This document shows positions 21,553 through 63,748 of a stretch of 64,000 nt of DNA, one piece after another. The notes below the pieces were generated by a model. The model did not search any database, was not told the origin of the DNA, and saw only the letters and a list, made by a program, of their open reading frames with translations. Each line of letters opens with the position of its first letter. The stretch's first letter is position 1. Position numbers and translations under genes: made by a program. The stretch is taken from the NCBI RefSeq assembly GCF_056712565.1, contig NZ_CM160072.1. One strand, given 5' to 3'.

Positions 21553-21705
21553 CTACTTCTTCGATTCGTAAGCGAGAACTGCCTTAAACTCCATACCACG
21601 TTCTCTGATACTCAACTCACACAACGAGTCGCCTACCATCAACGTGAATCCCAGTACTGTACAACACAGTACGATGATTGCCACAAGGGCATATTTTGTC
21701 AGCAT
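21553..21705 (-). CDS. Hok/Gef-family type I toxin (small membrane peptide), HokE-like
   Basis: Translated by hand from the minus strand: [50 protein letters not shown] (50 aa, ATG to TAG). Hok-family hallmarks: N-terminal TM helix, conserved SLCE motif and C-terminal AYE(S/P)K. GGGAGG Shine-Dalgarno 7 nt upstream. Below the 60-aa cutoff, so absent from the track. Confidence 0.8.
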
Positions 21706-21969
21706 GTCTTGCCTCCCTGCAAAGAAGAGACTAACATCCGAATTGCTTAGGTTCGAACGTAGGCCTCAGGTTGATAGAAATATCGCCTGGGGCTTTTGTC
21801 CATCTGGAACCTCGCGAATGCTTAACGCCAGACAGCCTCAAGCACCCAATGCCATTCTATACCTGTTAATTCTCCCTGCGACGTTCTCGTTTAAATGCCG
21901 GAATGCTGCTCGCAAAATAAAAACGCCCCCATCATTTCTGACAGAGGCGTTTAATTTATCCGGCAATAT

Positions 21970-39704: not shown

Positions 39705-40598
39705 ATGCGAAATTTTATCTTCCTTATGGCTTTCTTCTGTTCATCTGTGTTTGCTACACAAATTCCAGTACCTGAATCACCCAGGTATGTGAATGACTTA
39801 ACCGGCACATTAACAAACAGCGAAGTAAACACCCTGACCAACCAGATTAAAGCCCTGACGCAAAAAAACCACGCACAGTTGGTCGTGTTAGTGGTTGATA
39901 CAACAGGCGATGAAACCATTGAGCAGTACGCAACGCGGGTATTCGATAGCTGGAAACCGGGTGATAAAGACCGTGATGATGGCGTTCTACTGTTAGTCGC
40001 CTGGCAGGATCATACCGTGCGTATTGAAATCGGTTACGGGCTGGAAGGTATTATTACGGATGCACAGTCCGGGAAAATTATTCGCAACAGTATTATTCCG
40101 GCATTTAAAAAAGGCGACCTGGCTGGTGGTTTACAAAAGGGGATCAACGATATTGAAAGTCGCCTGACGGGGAATAATTCAGCAACGATAACACCGACCG
40201 ATCACCCTTTGTCCTTTAGCGGTTGGTGGGCTTTATTAGTCTGGGCGATAATACTGACGTTTATTTCTGCCAGAGGATATATCAAAACGTTGGGAGTAAT
40301 TTGCTTCGCAGCCATTGTACTGGCCTTTGTTTTACCTATAGCAGGTTTCAGCGGAAGCTGGGGAGTACTCACAACATTACTCTGCTTCGCCACACCGTTT
40401 CTGGCAGTTGCCATCGCTTTTACCCCCTTCGGCAAAAAGGTTCGGGATTCGATGCGTGATGCCAACCAGCCATCACGCCATACAAGAAGCAATTCTTCCT
40501 CCCACTATTCATCATCGTCATCCTCTTCATTCGACAATGACAATTTTAGCGGTGGTGGCGGTTCATCTGGTGGCGGTGGCGCTTCCGGGCGCTGGTAA
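39705..40598 (+). CDS. TPM-domain (DUF477/YgcG-like) membrane protein, paralog 1, with Gly/Ser-rich C-terminal tail
   Basis: Start chosen at MRNFIFLMAFFCSSVFA (signal peptide); alternative ATGs lie at 39675 and 39681. TPM domain (LVVLVVDTTGDETIEQYATRVFDSWKPGDKDRDDGVLLLVAWQDHTVRIEIGYGLEG), 2–3 TM helices, poly-Ser linker, C-terminus GGGGSSGGGGASGRW. Confidence 0.75.
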   Translation: MRNFIFLMAFFCSSVFATQIPVPESPRYVNDLTGTLTNSEVNTLTNQIKALTQKNHAQLVVLVVDTTGDETIEQYATRVFDSWKPGDKDRDDGVLLLVAWQDHTVRIEIGYGLEGIITDAQSGKIIRNSIIPAFKKGDLAGGLQKGINDIESRLTGNNSATITPTDHPLSFSGWWALLVWAIILTFISARGYIKTLGVICFAAIVLAFVLPIAGFSGSWGVLTTLLCFATPFLAVAIAFTPFGKKVRDSMRDANQPSRHTRSNSSSHYSSSSSSSFDNDNFSGGGGSSGGGGASGRW

Positions 40599-47494: not shown

Positions 47495-49729
47495 CTAACT
47501 CCCGTGCAACCGACGCGCGTCGATAACATCCGGTACCTGGTTGAGTTTACCCAGCACGCGCCCCAGCACTTGCAGGTTGTAAATCTCAATGGTCATGTCG
47601 ATGGTCGCCAGTTGCTGTTTGGTGTCGCTACGGCTGGCAACGCCAAGTACGTTCACCTTCTCGTTGGCGAGAATGGTCGTGATATCACGTAACAACCCAC
47701 TACGATCATTAGCCACCACGCGGACCACCAGCGAATATCCGGCGGAGTAGCTCTCGCCCCATACCGCGTCAACAATGCGTTCTGGCGCATGGGAGCGCAG
47801 TTCCGCCAATTGTTCGCAATCGGCGCGGTGTACTGAAATACCGCGCCCCTGGGTAATGAAGCCGACAATCTCATCTCCAGGAATCGGCTGGCAGCAGCGC
47901 GCGATGTGGTGCATCAGGTTACCGACCCCTTCTACCACCACACGACCGTTATCTTTACTGCGGTTTTGCGGCGTGTAGCTTTTTTGCTGAAGCTGTTTCA
48001 GCGCGGCGGCGTCCTGCTCTTCGGCACTCGGCTTATTAAATTGCGATTGCAGGAAGTTCACCATCTGATTGAGACGGATATCCCCGCCACCAATCGCCGC
48101 CAGCAACTCGTCGACATCATTGAAGTTGTAACGCGGCAGCAGATGTTTTTCTGCTTCTTTCAGGCTGATCCCCAGATGTTCCAGCTCGTCGTCAAGAATT
48201 TGCCGCCCAGCCAGAATGTTTTTGTCACGGTCCTGTTTACGGAACCAGGCGTGAATTTTCGAACGCCCACGGCTGGTTGTGACGTAACCGAGGTTTGGGT
48301 TTAACCAGTCACGGCTGGGGTTCGGCTGTTTCTGGGTGATAATTTCAATCTGGTCGCCCATCTGCAGCTGGTAGGTGAACGGCACAATGCGCCCGCCAAT
48401 TTTTGCCCCGATGCAGCGGTGTCCGACATCACTGTGGATGTGGTAAGCGAAGTCCAGCGGCGTTGATCCCGCAGGCAAATCAACGACATCACCTTTCGGC
48501 GTAAAGACGTACACTCGGTCGTCAAAGACCTGACTACGTACTTCGTCGAGCATTTCGCCGGAATCAGCCATCTCTTCCTGCCACGCAATCAGTTTACGCA
48601 GCCAGGCAATCCGGTCTTCATGTCCCGAACGTGCGCCGCCAGCAGCCGCGCCCTCTTTATATTTCCAGTGCGCAGCAACACCCAACTCTGCATCTTCATG
48701 CATCTGTTTGGTGCGGATTTGGATCTCAACGGTTTTGCCACCCGGCCCCAGAACCACGGTATGAATGGACTGATAACCGTTTGGTTTCGGGTTAGCGACG
48801 TAATCGTCAAACTCATCCGGCAGGTGGCGATAGTGAGTGTGCACTATCCCCAGTGCGGCATAACAATCCTGTAAACGCTCGGCGACAATACGTACCGCAC
48901 GCACATCAAACAGCTCATCGAAGGCGAGGTTCTTTTTCTGCATTTTGCGCCAGATACTGTAGATGTGTTTCGGACGGCCATACACTTCAGCTTTAACGCC
49001 TTCAGCTTTCATCTCAGCGCGCAGATGGCCGACAAACTCTTCGATATAGTGTTCGCGGTCGAGACGGCGTTCATGCAGCAGTTTTGCGATGCGTTTGTAT
49101 TCGGTCGGGTGGAGATAACGGAAGCAGTAATCTTCCAGCTCCCATTTCAGTTGCCCAATCCCAAGACGGTTCGCCAACGGCGCGTAGATATTGGTGCACT
49201 CTTTTGCCGCCAGTACGCGTTCATCTTCCGGCGCATCTTTTACTTCGCGCAGGTGAGCAATACGCTCCGCCAGTTTGATGACCACGCAGCGAAAATCATC
49301 GACCATCGCCAATAACATCCGGCGAACGTTATCGACCTGTTCGGAGGAAACAGAATCAGTGTGCGTCGCTTTCAGCTGGCGGATCGCCGCCATATCACGC
49401 ACGCCGTGAATAAGGTTAACGACCGACTTACCGACGCTCTCACGCAGCACATCTTCGCTGACTACGTTGGCATCAGCCAGAGGGAACAGCAGCGCCGCCC
49501 GCAGCGTGTCAATGTCCATACTTAATGTCGAGAGGATCTCCACCATCTCAACACCACGCCACAATAACAGACTGGCATCCGGATGCCCCTGCGTCTGTTG
49601 CAGACAATACGCCCAGGTTTCGGCTAAGCACTCACACGACTTCTGGCTGGTAATACCCAGACTTGCGATCCATTTTTCCGGATCAAATTCACCAGCCTTA
49701 TTGATATGTGCACTTCTTACCGCAACCAT
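47495..49729 (-). CDS. relA: GTP pyrophosphokinase ((p)ppGpp synthetase I)
   Basis: 744-aa ORF MVAVRSAHINKAGEFDPEKWIASLGITSQKSCECLAETWAYCLQ..., canonical RelA. Confidence 0.95.
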   Translation of the reverse strand: MVAVRSAHINKAGEFDPEKWIASLGITSQKSCECLAETWAYCLQQTQGHPDASLLLWRGVEMVEILSTLSMDIDTLRAALLFPLADANVVSEDVLRESVGKSVVNLIHGVRDMAAIRQLKATHTDSVSSEQVDNVRRMLLAMVDDFRCVVIKLAERIAHLREVKDAPEDERVLAAKECTNIYAPLANRLGIGQLKWELEDYCFRYLHPTEYKRIAKLLHERRLDREHYIEEFVGHLRAEMKAEGVKAEVYGRPKHIYSIWRKMQKKNLAFDELFDVRAVRIVAERLQDCYAALGIVHTHYRHLPDEFDDYVANPKPNGYQSIHTVVLGPGGKTVEIQIRTKQMHEDAELGVAAHWKYKEGAAAGGARSGHEDRIAWLRKLIAWQEEMADSGEMLDEVRSQVFDDRVYVFTPKGDVVDLPAGSTPLDFAYHIHSDVGHRCIGAKIGGRIVPFTYQLQMGDQIEIITQKQPNPSRDWLNPNLGYVTTSRGRSKIHAWFRKQDRDKNILAGRQILDDELEHLGISLKEAEKHLLPRYNFNDVDELLAAIGGGDIRLNQMVNFLQSQFNKPSAEEQDAAALKQLQQKSYTPQNRSKDNGRVVVEGVGNLMHHIARCCQPIPGDEIVGFITQGRGISVHRADCEQLAELRSHAPERIVDAVWGESYSAGYSLVVRVVANDRSGLLRDITTILANEKVNVLGVASRSDTKQQLATIDMTIEIYNLQVLGRVLGKLNQVPDVIDARRLHGS

Positions 49730-51134: not shown

Positions 51135-53891
51135 ATGACCAACTACAGCCTGCGCGCACGCATGATGATTCTGATCCTGGCACCGACCGTCCTTATTGGT
51201 TTATTGCTGAGTATCTTTTTCGTCGTGCATCGCTATAACGACTTGCAGCGTCAACTGGAAGATGCCGGTGCCAGCATTATTGAGCCGCTTGCAGTTTCTA
51301 CTGAATATGGCATGAGTCTGCAAAATCGCGAATCTATCGGTCAGTTAATAAGCGTACTGCATCGTCGCCATTCTGATATTGTTCGCGCGATTTCGGTTTA
51401 TGATGAAAATAACCGACTCTTTGTCACCTCCAATTTTCATCTTGATCCCTCATCAATGCAGCTCGGCAGCAACGTGCCGTTTCCTCGCCAGCTCACTGTC
51501 ACTCGTGACGGCGATATAATGATCCTCCGCACGCCGATTATTTCTGAAAGTTACTCCCCCGACGAATCGCCCAGTAGCGATGCCAAAAATAGTCAAAATA
51601 TGCTGGGATATATTGCGCTGGAGCTGGATCTTAAATCGGTTCGCTTGCAGCAATATAAAGAGATCTTTATTTCCAGCGTGATGATGCTGTTTTGTATCGG
51701 TATTGCGCTTATTTTTGGCTGGCGCTTAATGCGCGATGTAACCGGTCCGATTCGCAACATGGTGAATACCGTCGACCGCATCCGTCGCGGGCAACTCGAC
51801 AGCCGGGTGGAAGGTTTTATGCTCGGCGAACTGGATATGCTGAAAAACGGTATCAACTCGATGGCAATGTCGCTGGCGGCTTATCACGAAGAGATGCAAC
51901 ACAATATCGACCAGGCGACGTCCGATCTGCGTGAGACGCTGGAGCAAATGGAGATTCAGAACGTTGAGTTGGATCTGGCGAAAAAGCGCGCCCAGGAAGC
52001 GGCGCGTATTAAATCCGAGTTTCTGGCAAATATGTCACACGAGCTGCGTACACCACTGAATGGTGTTATTGGCTTTACCCGCCTGACGCTGAAAACAGAA
52101 TTAACACCAACGCAGCGCGATCACCTGAATACGATTGAACGTTCGGCAAATAATTTGCTGGCAATTATTAATGATGTTCTCGACTTCTCGAAACTGGAAG
52201 CCGGTAAGCTGATTCTGGAAAGTATTCCATTCCCACTACGCAGCACGCTGGATGAAGTCGTTACCCTGCTGGCACATTCTTCTCACGATAAAGGGCTGGA
52301 ACTGACGCTCAATATTAAAAGCGACGTGCCTGATAACGTGATCGGCGACCCACTACGATTACAGCAAATCATCACTAACCTGGTAGGGAATGCAATTAAA
52401 TTCACCGAGAATGGCAACATTGATATTCTGGTAGAAAAACGTGCGCTGAGTAATACCAAAGTGCAAATTGAAGTGCAGATTCGGGATACCGGCATTGGTA
52501 TTCCTGAACGCGATCAATCGCGCTTATTCCAGGCCTTCAGACAGGCTGATGCCAGTATTTCCCGCCGTCATGGTGGCACCGGGCTGGGGCTGGTGATTAC
52601 ACAAAAACTGGTTAATGAAATGGGCGGCGATATTTCGTTCCATAGCCTGCCGAATCGTGGTTCAACTTTCTGGTTCCACATTAATCTCGATCTGAACCCG
52701 AACATTATTATCGAAGGGCCATCCACCCAGTGCCTCGCTGGTAAGCGCCTGGCCTATGTCGAACCAAACTCCGCAGCAGCACAATGCACGCTGGATATTT
52801 TAAGTGAAACGCCGCTGGAAGTGGTTTATAGCCCAACGTTCTCCGCGCTGCCTCCCGCGCATTACGACATGATGTTATTAGGCATAGCGGTGACCTTCCG
52901 CGAGCCGCTAACAATGCAACATGAGCGATTAGCGAAAGCAGTATCGATGACCGATTTCCTGATGCTGGCACTTCCTTGCCATGCACAAGTCAATGCTGAA
53001 AAACTTAAGCAAGATGGTATCGGCGCGTGTCTGCTGAAACCATTAACACCTACGCGCCTGTTGCCTGCCCTGACGGAATTTTGTCATCACAAACAAAACA
53101 CGCTTTTGCCTGTAACCGATGAAAGTAAGCTGGCAATGACAGTCATGGCGGTTGATGACAACCCCGCTAACCTGAAACTTATCGGCGCATTGCTGGAAGA
53201 TATGGTGCAACATGTGGAACTTTGCGATAGCGGGCATCAGGCGGTTGAACGGGCGAAACAGATGCCGTTCGATTTAATCTTAATGGATATTCAAATGCCG
53301 GACATGGACGGCATTCGGGCATGTGAGCTCATCCACCAGCTCCCGCATCAGCAGCAAACGCCGGTTATCGCGGTAACGGCGCATGCGATGGCCGGGCAAA
53401 AAGAGAAACTGCTTGGCGCGGGGATGAGTGATTATCTGGCCAAACCGATCGAAGAAGAGCGATTGCATAATTTGCTGTTGCGCTACAAGCCTGGCAGCGG
53501 TATTTCCTCTCGCGTCGTGACGCCCGAAGTCAACGAAATTGTGGTCAACCCGAATGCGACCCTCGACTGGCAACTGGCACTACGCCAGGCAGCAGGAAAA
53601 ACCGATTTAGCGCGCGATATGCTGCAAATGTTACTCGATTTCCTGCCTGAAGTTCGCAACAAAGTTGAGGAACAGCTGGTTGGAGAAAACCCGGAAGGCC
53701 TGGTTGATTTGATTCATAAACTGCATGGCAGTTGCGGCTATAGCGGTGTACCGCGTATGAAGAATCTCTGCCAACTGATCGAACAACAGCTACGTAGCGG
53801 TACTAAAGAAGAAGATTTAGAGCCGGAGCTGCTGGAACTGTTGGACGAGATGGATAATGTAGCGCGCGAAGCCAGCAAAATTCTCGGGTAA
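51135..53891 (+). CDS. barA: Hybrid sensor histidine kinase BarA
   Basis: 918-aa ORF with N-terminal TM/HAMP, HisKA ([14 protein letters not shown]), HATPase, receiver (VDDNPANL...[14 protein letters not shown]) and C-terminal HPt domains. Confidence 0.95.
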
Positions 53892-56824: not shown

Positions 56825-58177
56825 TTATTGCCCCGCGACAGGTTTCAGCTCAATACGCTTGATATCGCCCACCAGCACCAGGTAGCTGAGTACCGCGATT
56901 AAGGCATGAACACCAACATAAATCAGCGCCCCATTAAAGGAGCCAGTCGTGCCAACGATATAACCAATTGCGATTGGCGTGACGATGCCAGAAATGTTAC
57001 CAAACATGTTAAACAGGCCACCGGAAAGACCGCTGATCTCTTTTGGCGCAGTATCAGCCATTACAGCCCAACCCAGCGCACCGATCCCCTTACCGAAGAA
57101 GGCCAGCGCCATAAAGCCGATGATCATCCACTCAACGTTGACGTAGTTGCAGAACACCATCACCATCGACAACAACATGCCCATCACGATCGGTGTTTTA
57201 CGCGCAATGTTCAGTGAACCCGTGCGACGCATCAGCCAGTCGGAAATAATCCCACCCAGCACACCGCCGATAAAACCGCAAACCGCCGGAACGGAAGCCA
57301 CAAAGCCCGCTTTCAGAATCGACATCCCGCGCGCCTGCACCAGATAAACCGGGAACCAGGTAATAAAAAAGTAAGTCAGGGCGTTGATACAGTACTGACC
57401 GATATAAACGCCGATCATCATCCGTGACCCGAGCAGCTGTTTGATCTGCCCCCACTTCACGCTAAACGGCACTTTAACTTTGGTGTTTTGCTGATCCATA
57501 TTGATCAGCGCGCCACCCGCGGCGATGTACTCCAGCTCTTTCTGATTTACGCCCGGATGTTGATTTGGCTCGTGGATGACTTTCAACCAGATAAAGCTGA
57601 TGACAATGCCCAGACCGCCCATAAAGAAAAAGACGTGTGACCAGCCCACTTCATGCGTCAGCCAGCCCATAATCGGCGCGAAGATAACCGTTGCGAAGTA
57701 TTGAGCGGAGTTAAAAATCGACACCGCCGTTCCCCTTTCCTGCGCCGGAAACCAGGCCGCAACAATGCGACTGTTGCCGGGGAAAGAGGGCGCTTCAGCA
57801 AGCCCGACCAGGAAGCGCAGCGTAAACAGGGCAACGATAATGCCGAATCCACTAAAGATATCGACGAAGCCTTGCAGCAAGGTAAACATCGACCAGATAA
57901 AGATCGACCAGAAGTAGACGCGTTTTGAACCAAAACGATCCAGCAACCAGCCACCAGGGATCTGCCCGATAACATACGCCCATGAGAAGGCAGAGAACAC
58001 ATAGCCCATTCCCACGGGATCAAGGCCGATATCTTTGGCCATTTCCGAACCGGCAATAGAAAGCGTAGCGCGGTCGCCGTAGTTGAAGGATGTGACGATA
58101 AACAACATCACCACTATCCAGTAACGAGCATTCGTGCGTTTTTCCACACTGCTCGCAGCCTGACTTAAAGAACTCAT
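56825..58177 (-). CDS. gudP: Glucarate/galactarate MFS transporter
   Basis: 450-aa 12-[48 protein letters not shown]... Confidence 0.9.
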
Positions 58178-58501
58178 TGTTGCACTCCTGAAAATTCGCG
58201 TTAGCCACGCTCACTCTGGACTGCGACATCGCCAGGAAATCAGAGGTGACGTAGGGTGTTTTTGCCGTTTTTATAGGTCGTTCACCGAATACGGCGCGTG
58301 TTTATATCTGGCAATAGCAGTATAAAAAGCGCGCCATAGCGGCTCACCGTGCAACAACACAACATTAATGCGTTCAATGAGGCCCGATTTTGGCATTAGC
58401 CCTGGACGGTGGAATCCACTTCACGGAAATGAAAACAAGAACAAGAAAGGAAGGGTTAAAACGAAGAAATAAAGAAGAGTATGAAATGGATCGCTTGACT
58501 C

Positions 58502-58558
58502 CAGGCAAACGCCAGTAAAAATCCGCGCTATGAAGCAGTTTTTACTGGCATTTGCCTG
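58502..58558. other. Long near-perfect inverted repeat (about 20-bp arms, 17-nt loop) in the yqcA–gudP intergenic region
   Basis: caggcaaacgccagtaaaaa ...17 nt... tttttactggcatttgcctg, one mismatch in the arms, no adjacent U-tract on either strand. Coordinates approximate (±2). Confidence 0.5.
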
Positions 58559-58610
58559 AAAAGATTCGATTCAGCACCGCTAAAACGGCATTTACCGCTC
58601 GCTGAACATA

Positions 58611-59060
58611 TCAGGACAACATCGTGCCCCAATGTTCAACCCACGGATTTGATTCCGTTTCCGGTTCCGGGTTCTCACTGGCGTCAATCAACAGCATTTC
58701 GCCAACCCGCTGAGCGCTCTGTTCCTGCAACAAGGCATCGAACTGTTTGCCGCCATTGCAGAAATTCACATAACTACTGTCGCCGAGCGCAATCACGCCA
58801 TAACGCAGATTCGGCTGGAAGCCCAGACTATCTTTGATTCCCTGAAAGAGTGGCACAATGCTATCAGGAAGGTCGCCCTGCCCGGTCGTGGACGTAACCA
58901 CCAGAACATACTTATCCTGATAGGGCAGCCAGTCGCTTAATTCAGGATCTTCAAATACCGTTGCTTTGTGGCCCTGCGCGGTCAGAATCGCTTCCGCTTC
59001 TTCGGCCACTAACAGTGAATTCCCGTACATGGTGCCGACAAAAATACCAATTTCCGCCAT
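58611..59060 (-). CDS. yqcA: Flavodoxin-like protein YqcA
   Basis: 149-aa [34 protein letters not shown]... with flavodoxin FMN-binding signature. Confidence 0.85.
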
Positions 59061-59077
59061 ACCGTTTTCTCCCTGGA

Positions 59078-59860
59078 TTAGGAACTTATCTCTCCATCCT
59101 GACCCGATGGCGCACTGAACTCAACCCTTTCATTTTCAGGAAGCAGACCCCGCCAGCCAAATTGTGATAACGCCTGCATCCAGGTGTCGTCCAGGCCCGC
59201 GTGAATAGTCAGCGGCTCGCCAGTAAAAGGATGCGTCAATGACAACTGACTAGCATGCAGCATTAACCGCTGAAGGCCAAAATGTTCAGCACCGCTGCGA
59301 TTCTGGCGTAAATCACCATGTTTGCTGTCGCCAATAATCGGGTGGCGCAAATGGGCAAGATGGCGACGGAGCTGGTGCTTACGTCCGGTTTTCGGCTCCA
59401 GTTCTACCAGGCCGTAGCGCGTGGTCGGGTAACGTCCGGTCGCTACCGGCATTTCTACGGTCGCCAGACCGCGATAATGCGTCACTGCTGGCTGCGGGCC
59501 TTTATCTTCGCGGGCAAATTTATCAGCGATTTTGTCCAGTTCTTCCACCAGTGGATAATCCAGCACCGCTTCTTCCATCAACCAGCCGCGCACAATCGCA
59601 TGGTAACGTTTCTGGATTTGGTGCTGTTCAAACTGTTGTGCCAGCAGCCGTCCGGCCTCGCTGGATAATCCCATCAACAACACACCAGAAGTGGGTCGGT
59701 CCAGACGATGAGCAGTAAACACATGCTGGCCTATCAGGTCACGCACGGTTTGCATGACCACTACTTTCTCGTCGCGATCCAGCCAGCTGCGGTGAACCAG
59801 CCAGCCGGAGGGTTTATTTACCGCAACCAGCCATTCATCCTGATAGAGTATTTCCAGCAT
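59078..59860 (-). CDS. truC: tRNA pseudouridine(65) synthase TruC
   Basis: 260-aa ORF with RluA-family catalytic motif ([12 protein letters not shown]). Confidence 0.9.
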
Positions 59861-60189
59861 TAGCTCGCATCATCCGCAAAAAGAGCATCCAGTTTTTCCA
59901 GCTCAGCCAGAATAAGCGCGCGTTGCGGATGATCAGTCGCCAGCGCCATTTCATAATAGGGCGCAACAGCAAAAGCGCCCGGTAACGGCTGGTTGTTATC
60001 TAACAAATCGTGCATCCGCGGAATCAGTACCCATTGCAACCACTCCAGTGGTTCCATGGTGTCCATAAAGAACGGCTGGGTACTCGCAAATTGATGCGGC
60101 AGGGGTTCATCGTTTCGCCAGTGCTGATGTTCACGCAGTAACGCTTCAAGCGCCTGCAACTGGAGACGAACGCGGTCATGAGTGGTCAT
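59860..60189 (-). CDS. yqcC: DUF446-family protein YqcC
   Basis: 109-aa ORF; position downstream of truC as in E. coli. Confidence 0.8.
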   Translation of the reverse strand: MTTHDRVRLQLQALEALLREHQHWRNDEPLPHQFASTQPFFMDTMEPLEWLQWVLIPRMHDLLDNNQPLPGAFAVAPYYEMALATDHPQRALILAELEKLDALFADDAS

Positions 60190-60231
60190 AAAGCAACCTC
60201 AATAAGAAAAACTGCCGCGAAGAATAGCAGG

Positions 60232-60600
60232 AATAAAAAAAGGGAGCACTGTATTCACAGTGCTCCCGGTTCGTTTCGCAGCATTCCGGCTACTTTTGTT
60301 GCTCCCTGCTCATCCTTGACAACTTTTCCTCTGGCCTTGCGGCCAATCGTTCATCCTGAACTATTGCTTCCTGCTCACACCACCCCGATGTGATACTTCA
60401 TCCTGAAGTGTTCCTGGCCTTCCTGACCCACCGAATCATCCTGACCGGTTCTCATTCTCCATCCTGGAGGTGTCCTTTAACGCGTCCTGCGTCATCCTCT
60501 TCGCTTCATCCAGAAGCCTTTCCCTGAAACACCATCCTGGTGTGTCCTTCAGAAGTGTCATCATCCTGATGTTCACTTCGTTGTCTGACTCCCTGTCGAC
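60232..60600 (-). ncRNA. csrB: CsrB small RNA (CsrA-sequestering)
   Basis: 369-nt span on the minus strand carrying about 20 CAGGA(U/A)G / AGGA motifs (seen as catcctg repeats on the + strand), 5' end GTCGACAGGGAGTCAGAC, and a 3' terminator hairpin (gggagcactgtattcacagtgctccc) followed by a U-tract. The length equals that of K-12 csrB. Confidence 0.88.
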
Positions 60601-60810
60601 GAAGATAGAATCGTCTTTTTCTCGAAGTCTTACAAGGCGCTTACAGACAATGCCTTAAGGATAATTTCATATGAAAGTTAAGAATTAACAAGCAACATTT
60701 TGTTTTTAAATGAAAATAACGATTCTTATCTTTTTAAGTATTCGCTTATTTCCTGGCGATCTCCTACAGAGTCTGTAAGAGATCTCTCACAACCAGATGG
60801 GGTATTTGGA

Positions 60811-61356
60811 TTACAGAAGAGGCTTAAGTTGATTAAGGAATTCCGCAAGATTTGAGGCTAAATGCGTCCGTTTACGTGTTCCCAGCGTCTCTTTGCACAC
60901 TTCACCGGAGAGATTACACACCGAGATGACCTCTAACTCTTCTTCCAGCGTCGCGATAAATAGCGTGGGCGGCAGTTTTAGCCTTTTCTGAGTCACCAGA
61001 TGACCAATCAGATTTTCCTGCACCCGACGGAAGTCGTCTTCACTCCAGGTTTGCAGCAATGTCAGTTTGATATCGCCAAACTGCGCGTGCATATCCCCGG
61101 CAAACTGAGTCGTATAAAAGGTATGAATCGTGGGTTGTATCACAATATCAAAAGCGCGTTCAACCGCGTTTACATTTTGTTCCCCGGTAAACGGCTGGGG
61201 TTGCCAGTATACGGCATCTTCGGTAGTTGAAATAATGCACGGTGAAGGAACGCCGTACAGTTCCTCACTTAACGGCCAGCTTTTATGCTCTTCATGCCAC
61301 GCATCGCAGTAGCGTGCAGTAAAATCTTTCAGGGCTTGTGCGGTCAAATCGTCCAC
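60811..61356 (-). CDS. syd: SecY-interacting protein Syd
   Basis: 181-aa [45 protein letters not shown]... Confidence 0.85.
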
Positions 61357-61423
61357 TAATTTCTCTCTTCACTTAAACCAGATACACTTGTCGTTTAGTT
61401 TATCTGGTTTATGACGGTGAAAC

Positions 61424-62272
61424 ATGTCTTCTTATGCAAACCATCAGGCACTTGCGGGCCTGACACTTGGAAAATCAACCGATTACCGGGATACCTATGA
61501 CGCCAGCCTACTGCAAGGCGTTCCACGCAGCCTGAATCGCGACCCGCTGGGTCTGAAAGCGGATAACCTGCCTTTTCACGGTACGGATATCTGGACGCTG
61601 TATGAACTTTCCTGGCTGAATGCGAAAGGTTTGCCGCAGGTCGCTGTCGGTCATGTTGAACTTGATTACACCAGCGTAAATCTGATTGAGTCGAAGAGTT
61701 TTAAGCTCTATCTCAACAGTTTTAACCAGACGCGTTTTAATAACTGGGATGAGGTGCGCCAGACGCTGGAGCGCGACTTAAGCACTTGCGCCCAGGGTAA
61801 GGTTAGCGTGGCGTTATATCGTCTTGATGAACTGGAAGGCCAGCCGATAGGTCATTTCAATGGCACCTGCATTGATGACCAGGATATCACTATCGATAAC
61901 TATGAATTCACTACTGACTATCTGGAGAATGCCACCAGCGGTGAAAAAGTAGTGGAAGAGACGCTTGTCAGCCACCTGCTGAAATCAAATTGCCTGATCA
62001 CCCATCAACCAGATTGGGGATCGATCCAAATTCAGTATCGTGGACGCCAAATTGACAGAGAAAAACTGCTGCGTTACCTGGTTTCTTTCCGTCATCACAA
62101 CGAGTTCCACGAACAGTGCGTGGAACGCATCTTTAATGACCTGTTACGCTTCTGCCAGCCAGAGAAATTGAGCGTTTACGCACGTTATACCCGTCGTGGC
62201 GGTCTGGACATTAACCCGTGGCGCAGTAATAGCGATTTTGTCCCATCGACCACAAGACTGGTTCGGCAATAA
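61424..62272 (+). CDS. queF: NADPH-dependent 7-cyano-7-deazaguanine reductase
   Basis: 282-aa ORF with QueF motifs (E(S/L)K(S/A)hK(L/Y)(Y/F/W) as [12 protein letters not shown]). Confidence 0.9.
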
Positions 62273-62383
62273 ATTTTTTCTCAATTTTGCGTGCTGGATT
62301 CACGCAGAAGGTTGTGAAAGGTCAGCAGGCAGGGCTATTGTAATCAAAGGGAATGACGATATTCGTCCCATAAGGAGTTTTTC

Positions 62384-63748
62384 TTGATTACACATATTAG
62401 CCCGCTTGGCTCCATGGATATGTTGTCGCAGCTGGAAGTGGATATGCTTAAACGCACCGCCAGCAGCGACCTCTATCAACTGTTTCGCAACTGTTCACTT
62501 GCCGTACTGAACTCCGGTAGTTTGACCGATAACAGCAAAGAATTGCTGTCTCGTTTTGAAAATTTCGATATTAACGTCCTGCGCCGTGAACGCGGCGTAA
62601 AGCTGGAACTGATAAATCCCCCGGAAGAGGCTTTTGTCGATGGGCGAATTATTCGCGCTTTGCAGGCCAACTTGTTCGCGGTTCTGCGTGACATTCTCTT
62701 CGTTTATGGGCAAATTCATAACACCGTTCGTTTTCCCAACCTGAATCTCGACAACTCCGTCCACATCACTAACCTGGTCTTTTCCATCTTGCGTAACGCT
62801 CGCGCGCTGCATGTCGGTGAAGCGCCAAATATGGTGGTCTGCTGGGGCGGTCACTCAATTAACGAAAACGAGTATTTGTATGCCCGTCGCGTCGGGAATC
62901 AGCTGGGCCTGCGTGAGCTGAATATCTGCACCGGCTGTGGTCCGGGAGCGATGGAAGCGCCGATGAAAGGTGCTGCGGTCGGACACGCGCAGCAGCGTTA
63001 CAAAGACAGTCGCTTTATTGGTATGACAGAGCCGTCGATTATCGCCGCTGAACCGCCTAACCCGCTGGTCAACGAATTGATCATCATGCCAGATATCGAA
63101 AAACGTCTGGAAGCGTTTGTCCGTATCGCTCACGGTATCATTATCTTCCCTGGCGGTGTGGGTACAGCAGAAGAGTTGCTGTATTTGCTGGGAATTTTAA
63201 TGAACCCGGCCAACAAAGATCAGGTTTTACCATTGATCCTCACCGGCCCGAAAGAGAGCGCCGACTACTTCCGCGTACTGGACGAGTTTGTCGTGCATAC
63301 GCTGGGTGAAAACGCGCGCCGCCATTACCGCATCATCATTGATGACGCCGCTGAAGTCGCTCGTCAGATGAAAAAATCGATGCCGCTGGTGAAAGAAAAT
63401 CGCCGCGACACTGGTGACGCTTACAGCTTTAACTGGTCAATGCGCATTGCGCCAGATTTGCAAATGCCGTTTGAGCCGTCTCACGAGAATATGGCTAATC
63501 TGAAGCTTTACCCGGATCAACCCGTTGAAGTGCTGGCTGCCGACCTGCGCCGTGCGTTCTCCGGTATTGTGGCGGGTAATGTAAAAGAAGTCGGTATTCG
63601 CGCCATTGAAGAGTTTGGTCCTTACAAAATCAACGGCGATAAAGAGATTATGCGTCGTATGGACGACCTGCTACAGGGTTTTGTTGCCCAGCATCGTATG
63701 AAGTTGCCAGGCTCAGCCTACATCCCTTGCTACGAAATCTGCACATAA
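62384..63748 (+). CDS. ppnN: Pyrimidine/purine nucleotide 5'-monophosphate nucleosidase (LOG-family)
   Basis: 454-aa ORF with LOG-family PGGxGTxxE motif ([11 protein letters not shown]). Confidence 0.88.

Follow-up and report, generated by a model that had tools for sequence, protein, structure and literature searches.

Identity and boundaries of csrB

The minus strand of positions 60232 to 60600 is almost certainly csrB of Escherichia coli, the gene of a 369-nt untranslated RNA that sequesters CsrA; the strain is probably phylogroup-B2-like. The gene is already known, this copy is one of its normal alleles and nothing about it is novel. The analysis shows which gene this is and where it ends, together with its motif array, predicted hairpins, terminator, UvrY site and conservation. 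By the window we mean the whole stretch of 64,000 nucleotides that was analysed (contig NZ_CM160072.1 of assembly GCF_056712565.1).

60232..60600, minus strand: csrB, non-coding RNA CsrB, from Rfam RF00018 and the alignment to K-12 b4408 (+1 at 60600, 3' end at 60232)

A first, sequence-only reading had named this stretch csrB and had proposed an Rfam covariance-model search as the check. This search of the window gave a full-length match to RF00018 (CsrB) at 60591..60232 on the minus strand, with 381.7 bits and E = 4.9e-111 against a gathering score of 71 bits. The match covers model positions 1-356 of 356, is not truncated and has zero non-standard pairs flagged. Where Rfam matches within one clan overlapped, the best family alone was retained. 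The csrB gene of K-12 MG1655 (b4408, NC_000913.3 2924156-2924524) aligns column for column with the window copy; both are 369 nt long and 365 of the 369 bases are identical (98.9%). The covariance-model match and this alignment confirm the csrB identity, and the earlier description as a known sRNA is right in that it is the same gene as K-12 b4408. That it is the E. coli csrB orthologue follows from its place between yqcC and syd and from how closely it matches the characterised K-12 gene.

The extent of exactly 369 nt (60232-60600) given in the sequence-only reading is also correct, as both ends coincide with the K-12 csrB annotation. The first 9 nt of the annotated csrB are not covered by the Rfam model, and +1 was therefore assigned from the K-12 annotation and its agreement with the promoter numbering in the literature. 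The distance to the UvrY palindrome (see section “Upstream control region”) fits a 5' end at 60600. The 3' end at 60232 is an annotation convention, and actual termination probably occurs within or just past the U-tract at 60235-60241.

The window contains, in this order, mutS, rpoS, cys genes, eno, pyrG, mazEFG, relA, barA, gud genes and ppnN. The 1.8 kb around csrB (truC, yqcC, syd) matches several E. coli chromosomes with 100% identity, among them that of the type strain ATCC 11775. The window is collinear with strain ZJ3920 except for SNPs and a one-base indel in the first 9 kb (placed near 7.9 kb). The SNPs are scattered up to position 49530, and 58100-62900 is identical. Base-level identity of the entire window with ZJ3920 was rejected because of the indel and the scattered SNPs. 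The best-matching strains suggest that the host strain is phylogroup B2-like.

Elsewhere in the window, the minus strand at 21553-21847 carries a chromosomal hok/sok-type toxin-antisense RNA locus between iap and cysH. Its Rfam sok match (RF01794; 21690-21847, 112 bits, E 1.2e-24) overlaps an annotated Hok/Gef family CDS at 21553-21705. In K-12 the iap-cysH interval carries the type I-E CRISPR-Cas locus; in the interval of the window no cas genes are annotated. On the plus strand at 39705-40376, a TPM-domain gene lies beside a LemA-family gene. In the annotation of the matching strain it is a pseudogene without its C-terminus, and two intact TPM-domain genes come after it. It is unrelated to csrB.

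GGA motif array and predicted fold

60264..60592, minus strand: array of 22 GGA motifs, candidate CsrA-binding sites 1-22 (motif count)

Published CsrB is 369 nt long and has 22 numbered GGA sites, of which site 22 is within the terminator (PMC5027483). The window CsrB agrees with this numbering. Sites 1-11 are at RNA positions 9, 35, 54, 64, 78, 90, 104, 114, 126, 137 and 141, and sites 12-22 at positions 160, 178, 187, 198, 230, 245, 272, 286, 296, 314 and 335, the last of which is in the terminator stem. On the RNA strand there are 22 GGA, 15 AGGA, 10 CAGGA and 6 CAGGATG motifs, and CAGGA(A/U/C)G occurs nine times. Read on the plus strand of 60232-60600, this corresponds to 22 TCC, 15 TCCT, 10 TCCTG and 6 CATCCTG, with the CATCCTG strings included among the TCCTG.

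The array had originally been described as about 20 evenly spaced CATCCTG or TCCTG elements. That number is right if GGA cores are counted (22), but too high for the strings as written (CATCCTG 6, TCCTG 10). The even spacing does not stand either: the gaps between successive GGA cores range from 4 to 32 nt (mainly 10-19), which makes the array dense but irregular. The density itself is well founded, since the window-wide density predicts 4.7 GGA, 0.85 AGGA and 0.06 CAGGATG per 369 nt per strand and the observed numbers are 22, 15 and 6.

The abundance of GGA on one strand, or of TCC on the other, might be explained by chance composition or by a generic intergenic repeat without specific function. 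The csrB RNA strand has 115 A and 121 G among its 369 nt and contains 22 GGA versus 2 UCC, and a purine bias of the strand, nothing more, is what this explanation draws on. In dinucleotide-preserving shuffles of the RNA, the GGA count of 22 was reached in 10 of 2000 cases. However, the AGGA, CAGGA and AGGATG counts were reached in none of the 2000, and the highest AGGA count among all other 369-nt stretches of the window is 6, versus 15 in csrB. Moreover, neither the covariance-model E-value of 4.9e-111 nor the near-universal presence of csrB in E. coli is in line with chance composition, and the probability that it accounts for the array is vanishingly small.

The predicted fold of csrB RNA is a row of short hairpins with GGA in their loops, followed by the terminator. 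At -117.7 kcal/mol it has a z-score of -3.49 relative to shuffles, none of which was equally stable. In the minimum-energy fold 13 of the 22 GGA are entirely within hairpin loops, and the predicted mean unpaired probability is at least 0.68 for 18 of the 22. At all 11 GGA-presenting hairpins of the Rfam consensus the window RNA has GGA in the loop, the twelfth helix being the terminator; cross-species covariation enters this comparison solely as built into the Rfam CsrB model.

Terminator and RNase E decay segment

60235..60267, minus strand: intrinsic terminator with an 11-bp stem and a 4-nt loop (60267..60242), then seven U (60241..60235; terminator scan)
60285..60305, minus strand: GGA sites 20 (60303-60305) and 21 (60285-60287), positions by count and role from PMC5027483
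60269..60277, minus strand: unstructured segment GAAACGAAC with the RNase E cleavage site (A327 = 60274, A331 = 60270), identical to K-12

A terminator hairpin had been noted as the boundary of the array, and the terminator scan recovered it on the minus strand. The stem has 7 G-C pairs among its 11 bp and is followed by TTTTTTT. It forms the last helix in both the Rfam consensus and the predicted fold.

The necessary RNase E cleavage site of CsrB is at A327/A331, in an unstructured segment directly before the terminator (PMC5027483). CsrA bound to GGA 20 and 21 shields CsrB from this cut (PMC5027483). In the window CsrB both RNA positions 327 and 331 are A, and GAAACGAAC is the same as in K-12. 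The elements for CsrD/RNase E decay, namely the cleavage segment and GGA 20 and 21, are thus present in the window csrB.

Upstream control region

60774..60791, minus strand: UvrY~P binding site, the 18-nt inverted repeat TGTGAGAGATCTCTTACA (exact match, centred at -182/-183 from 60600)
60760..60768, minus strand: additional partial half-site for UvrY, TGTAGGAGA, located 5 bp from the palindrome on its downstream side (exact match)
60693..60705, minus strand: putative IHF site AAACAAAATGTTG at -105..-93, with one mismatch to WATCAANNNNTTR (pattern search)
60607..60635, minus strand: probable core promoter, TTGTAA at -35..-30 (60630-60635), a 17-nt spacer and GATTCT at -12..-7 (60607-60612), read off from +1

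In the study by Zere et al. (PMC4682653), DNase I footprinting and ChIP-exo place the UvrY palindrome TGTGAGAGATCTCTTACA of csrB at a centre of -183/-182, and the half-site TGTAGGAGA is described near it. The palindrome has its sole exact match of the window at this distance from 60600, where the chance expectation is 0.01 even with 3 mismatches allowed.

The same study puts a putative IHF site of csrB between two UvrY crosslinking regions, at -142 to -56 (PMC4682653). Our IHF pattern search upstream of csrB gave one-mismatch matches alone, which overlap on both strands at -105..-90. The minus-strand match AAACAAAATGTTG at -105..-93 may be the IHF site of csrB; this putative site sits in a spacer of 66% A+T.

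A scan of 60100-60900 for the sigma-70 consensus found no (strong) promoter. TTGTAA-N17-GATTCT, which sits where -35 and -10 hexamers would be expected relative to +1, is the probable core promoter of csrB. A promoter without a strong sigma-70 consensus would fit activator dependence. UvrY crosslinking in vivo is reported to extend from -56 to +25 of csrB (PMC4682653).

The inverted repeat GACGA-N8-TCGTC spans the csrB start (60598-60615, -15 to +3) and is the same in K-12. It was scored as terminator-like on the plus strand because a T-run comes after it, and the repeat may be due to chance. The gene for BarA, the sensor kinase that phosphorylates UvrY, is also in the window, at 51135-53891 on the plus strand and about 6.7 kb from csrB, which is the normal E. 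coli arrangement and no new linkage.

Relation to CsrC and the Rsm RNAs

GGA hairpins in several copies, together with a terminator, are also found in CsrC and in the Rsm RNAs, and the features described so far could therefore belong to another RNA of the Csr/Rsm clan, for instance the paralogue CsrC. Like CsrB, CsrC of E. coli (clan CL00106) sequesters CsrA with multiple GGA sites, is activated by UvrY and is degraded by way of CsrD/RNase E (PMC4682653, PMC7652899), and csrC likewise has a UvrY site (PMC4682653). However, csrC is a separate gene located elsewhere. Its UvrY palindrome is weaker and differs in sequence (TGTGAGACATTGCCGATA), and csrC does not need IHF (PMC4682653).

The results for the window side with CsrB. 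The clan-resolved best Rfam family is CsrB, full length and with 381.7 bits, and the CsrC model at its gathering score had no match anywhere in the window. The gene lies between yqcC and syd, where csrB belongs, and is 98.9% identical to K-12 csrB. CsrC is also shorter than CsrB, at about 245 nt, and has fewer sites. It is extremely unlikely that the RNA is a clan member other than CsrB, and an identity as CsrC was rejected on the grounds of the best clan member and the locus.

Similar RNAs are known from other genera. RsmB, RsmX, RsmY and RsmZ (Pectobacterium, Pseudomonas) are, like CsrB, protein-sequestering sRNAs with GGA hairpin loops, and the Rsm sRNAs are driven by GacS/GacA, the orthologues of BarA/UvrY (PMC7652899). 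Species without CsrD have stable Csr-type RNAs, which are protected by the CsrA homologue and not degraded via CsrD (PMC7652899). RsmX, RsmY and RsmZ are Rfam families other than CsrB. All three are much shorter than CsrB.

Open reading frames, annotation and distribution

60178-60393, plus strand: ORF of 71 aa (ORF list)
60390-60527, plus strand: ORF of 45 aa (ORF list)
60470-60658, plus strand: ORF of 62 aa (ORF list)

In an ORF list, csrB appears as these three small ORFs on the plus strand, and the sequence-only reading had taken them for a misrendered non-coding feature. This view is supported, as all three run antisense to csrB and have no Pfam match. Two more ORFs, of 26 and 46 aa, overlap csrB on the minus strand, and none of the five matches Pfam at E <= 1.

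Since ORFs of 26-71 aa are present on both strands, it could be argued that the locus encodes one or more small proteins, either from the 71-, 45- and 62-aa ORFs on the plus strand or from the 46-aa ORF on the minus strand, and that the RNA features are incidental. Besides the negative Pfam result, several points speak against this. The plus-strand ORFs are antisense to a transcript that has its own promoter elements and terminator, and the K-12 record for the locus is an ncRNA, with no CDS. ORFs of this size often arise by chance, and the 3 kb examined contains 47 that are 20 aa or longer. An A/G-rich strand would also be expected to leave long stop-free frames. That the region serves to encode small proteins is thus improbable in the extreme. 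The csrB region is non-coding: it has no Pfam match and K-12 annotates an ncRNA only.

The gene was found in 5,425 of 5,426 complete E. coli genomes at an identity of at least 95%, normally once per genome. One genome of this set had no csrB match, some had two csrB places, and one csrB-like place is on a plasmid record. In strain MARGA_3, a human isolate, an IS3-family transposase element lies inside csrB (NZ_CM170101.1, 2149-3778). Here nt 1-94 and nt 92-369 of csrB are about 1.26 kb apart and nt 92-94 are duplicated. This insertion would be a natural disruption of csrB.

K-12 annotates csrB, but a feature of that name is absent from all 13 inspected RefSeq records of non-K-12 strains, including ZJ3920. 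The gap between yqcC and syd in the window measures 621 bp (60190-60810). Since csrB is unannotated in the 13 inspected records, this gap looks empty, and it is filled with spurious ORFs when ORFs alone are viewed.

Differences from K-12 csrB

60549, minus strand: substitution C52A (K-12 to window; alignment)
60412, minus strand: substitution G189A (K-12 to window; alignment)
60288, minus strand: substitution U313C (K-12 to window; alignment), directly 5' of GGA 21
60261, minus strand: substitution G340A (K-12 to window; alignment), in the terminator stem

The K-12 and window copies of csrB have the yqcC-syd location, the 22 GGA, the terminator and the RNase E cleavage segment in common, and also the UvrY palindrome at -183/-182 and its half-site TGTAGGAGA. 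The 210-bp region upstream of csrB has 4 substitutions relative to K-12, none of them within the UvrY palindrome. Within the RNA, G340A replaces a G.U pair of the K-12 terminator stem by an A-U pair, and the stem of the window allele is fully Watson-Crick.

A functional difference between the two alleles is unlikely, and none is known or predicted. Still, since two of the four substitutions touch the decay and termination module, CsrB half-life or termination could conceivably shift. We consider it a long shot that U313C and G340A change either of these, and hence the CsrA set-point, in B2/extra-intestinal pathogenic strains.

Proposed mechanism and meaning

Since 1997 CsrB has served as the textbook case of a small RNA that sequesters a protein, and the mechanism of the Csr system, with BarA-UvrY activation, CsrA sequestration and CsrD/EIIA-Glc-dependent decay, has been reviewed (PMC7652899). 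For K-12 CsrB, CsrA binding and antagonism are established (PMC7652899, PMC5027483). CsrA binding, sequestration, UvrY/IHF activation and the decay pathway are carried over from these K-12 experiments to the window copy. Given its 98.9% identity to the K-12 RNA, the window CsrB would be expected to bind multiple CsrA dimers and to antagonise CsrA.

The proposed sequence of events is as follows. BarA would phosphorylate UvrY, and UvrY~P bound to the palindrome at -183 would turn on csrB, assisted by IHF, which may bend the A+T-rich spacer. Transcription would then proceed from right to left, from +1 at 60600 to the intrinsic terminator ending near 60232. In the transcript, most GGA motifs would be displayed either in the loop of a short hairpin or in a linker that is single-stranded. 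A CsrA dimer has two RNA-binding surfaces and would bridge two GGA sites, so that one CsrB molecule could hold many dimers. In this way CsrB would keep CsrA from its lower-affinity mRNAs and relieve CsrA control of carbon metabolism, biofilm, motility and virulence genes. Removal of CsrB would start with the RNase E cut in GAAACGAAC, which CsrA at GGA 20/21 would block. When glucose is available, CsrD and unphosphorylated EIIA-Glc would override this block and CsrB would be degraded.

Finding csrB in the window adds nothing to this biology. Its use is for annotation, in which csrB is to be masked as a known ncRNA together with its upstream control region of roughly 200 bp.
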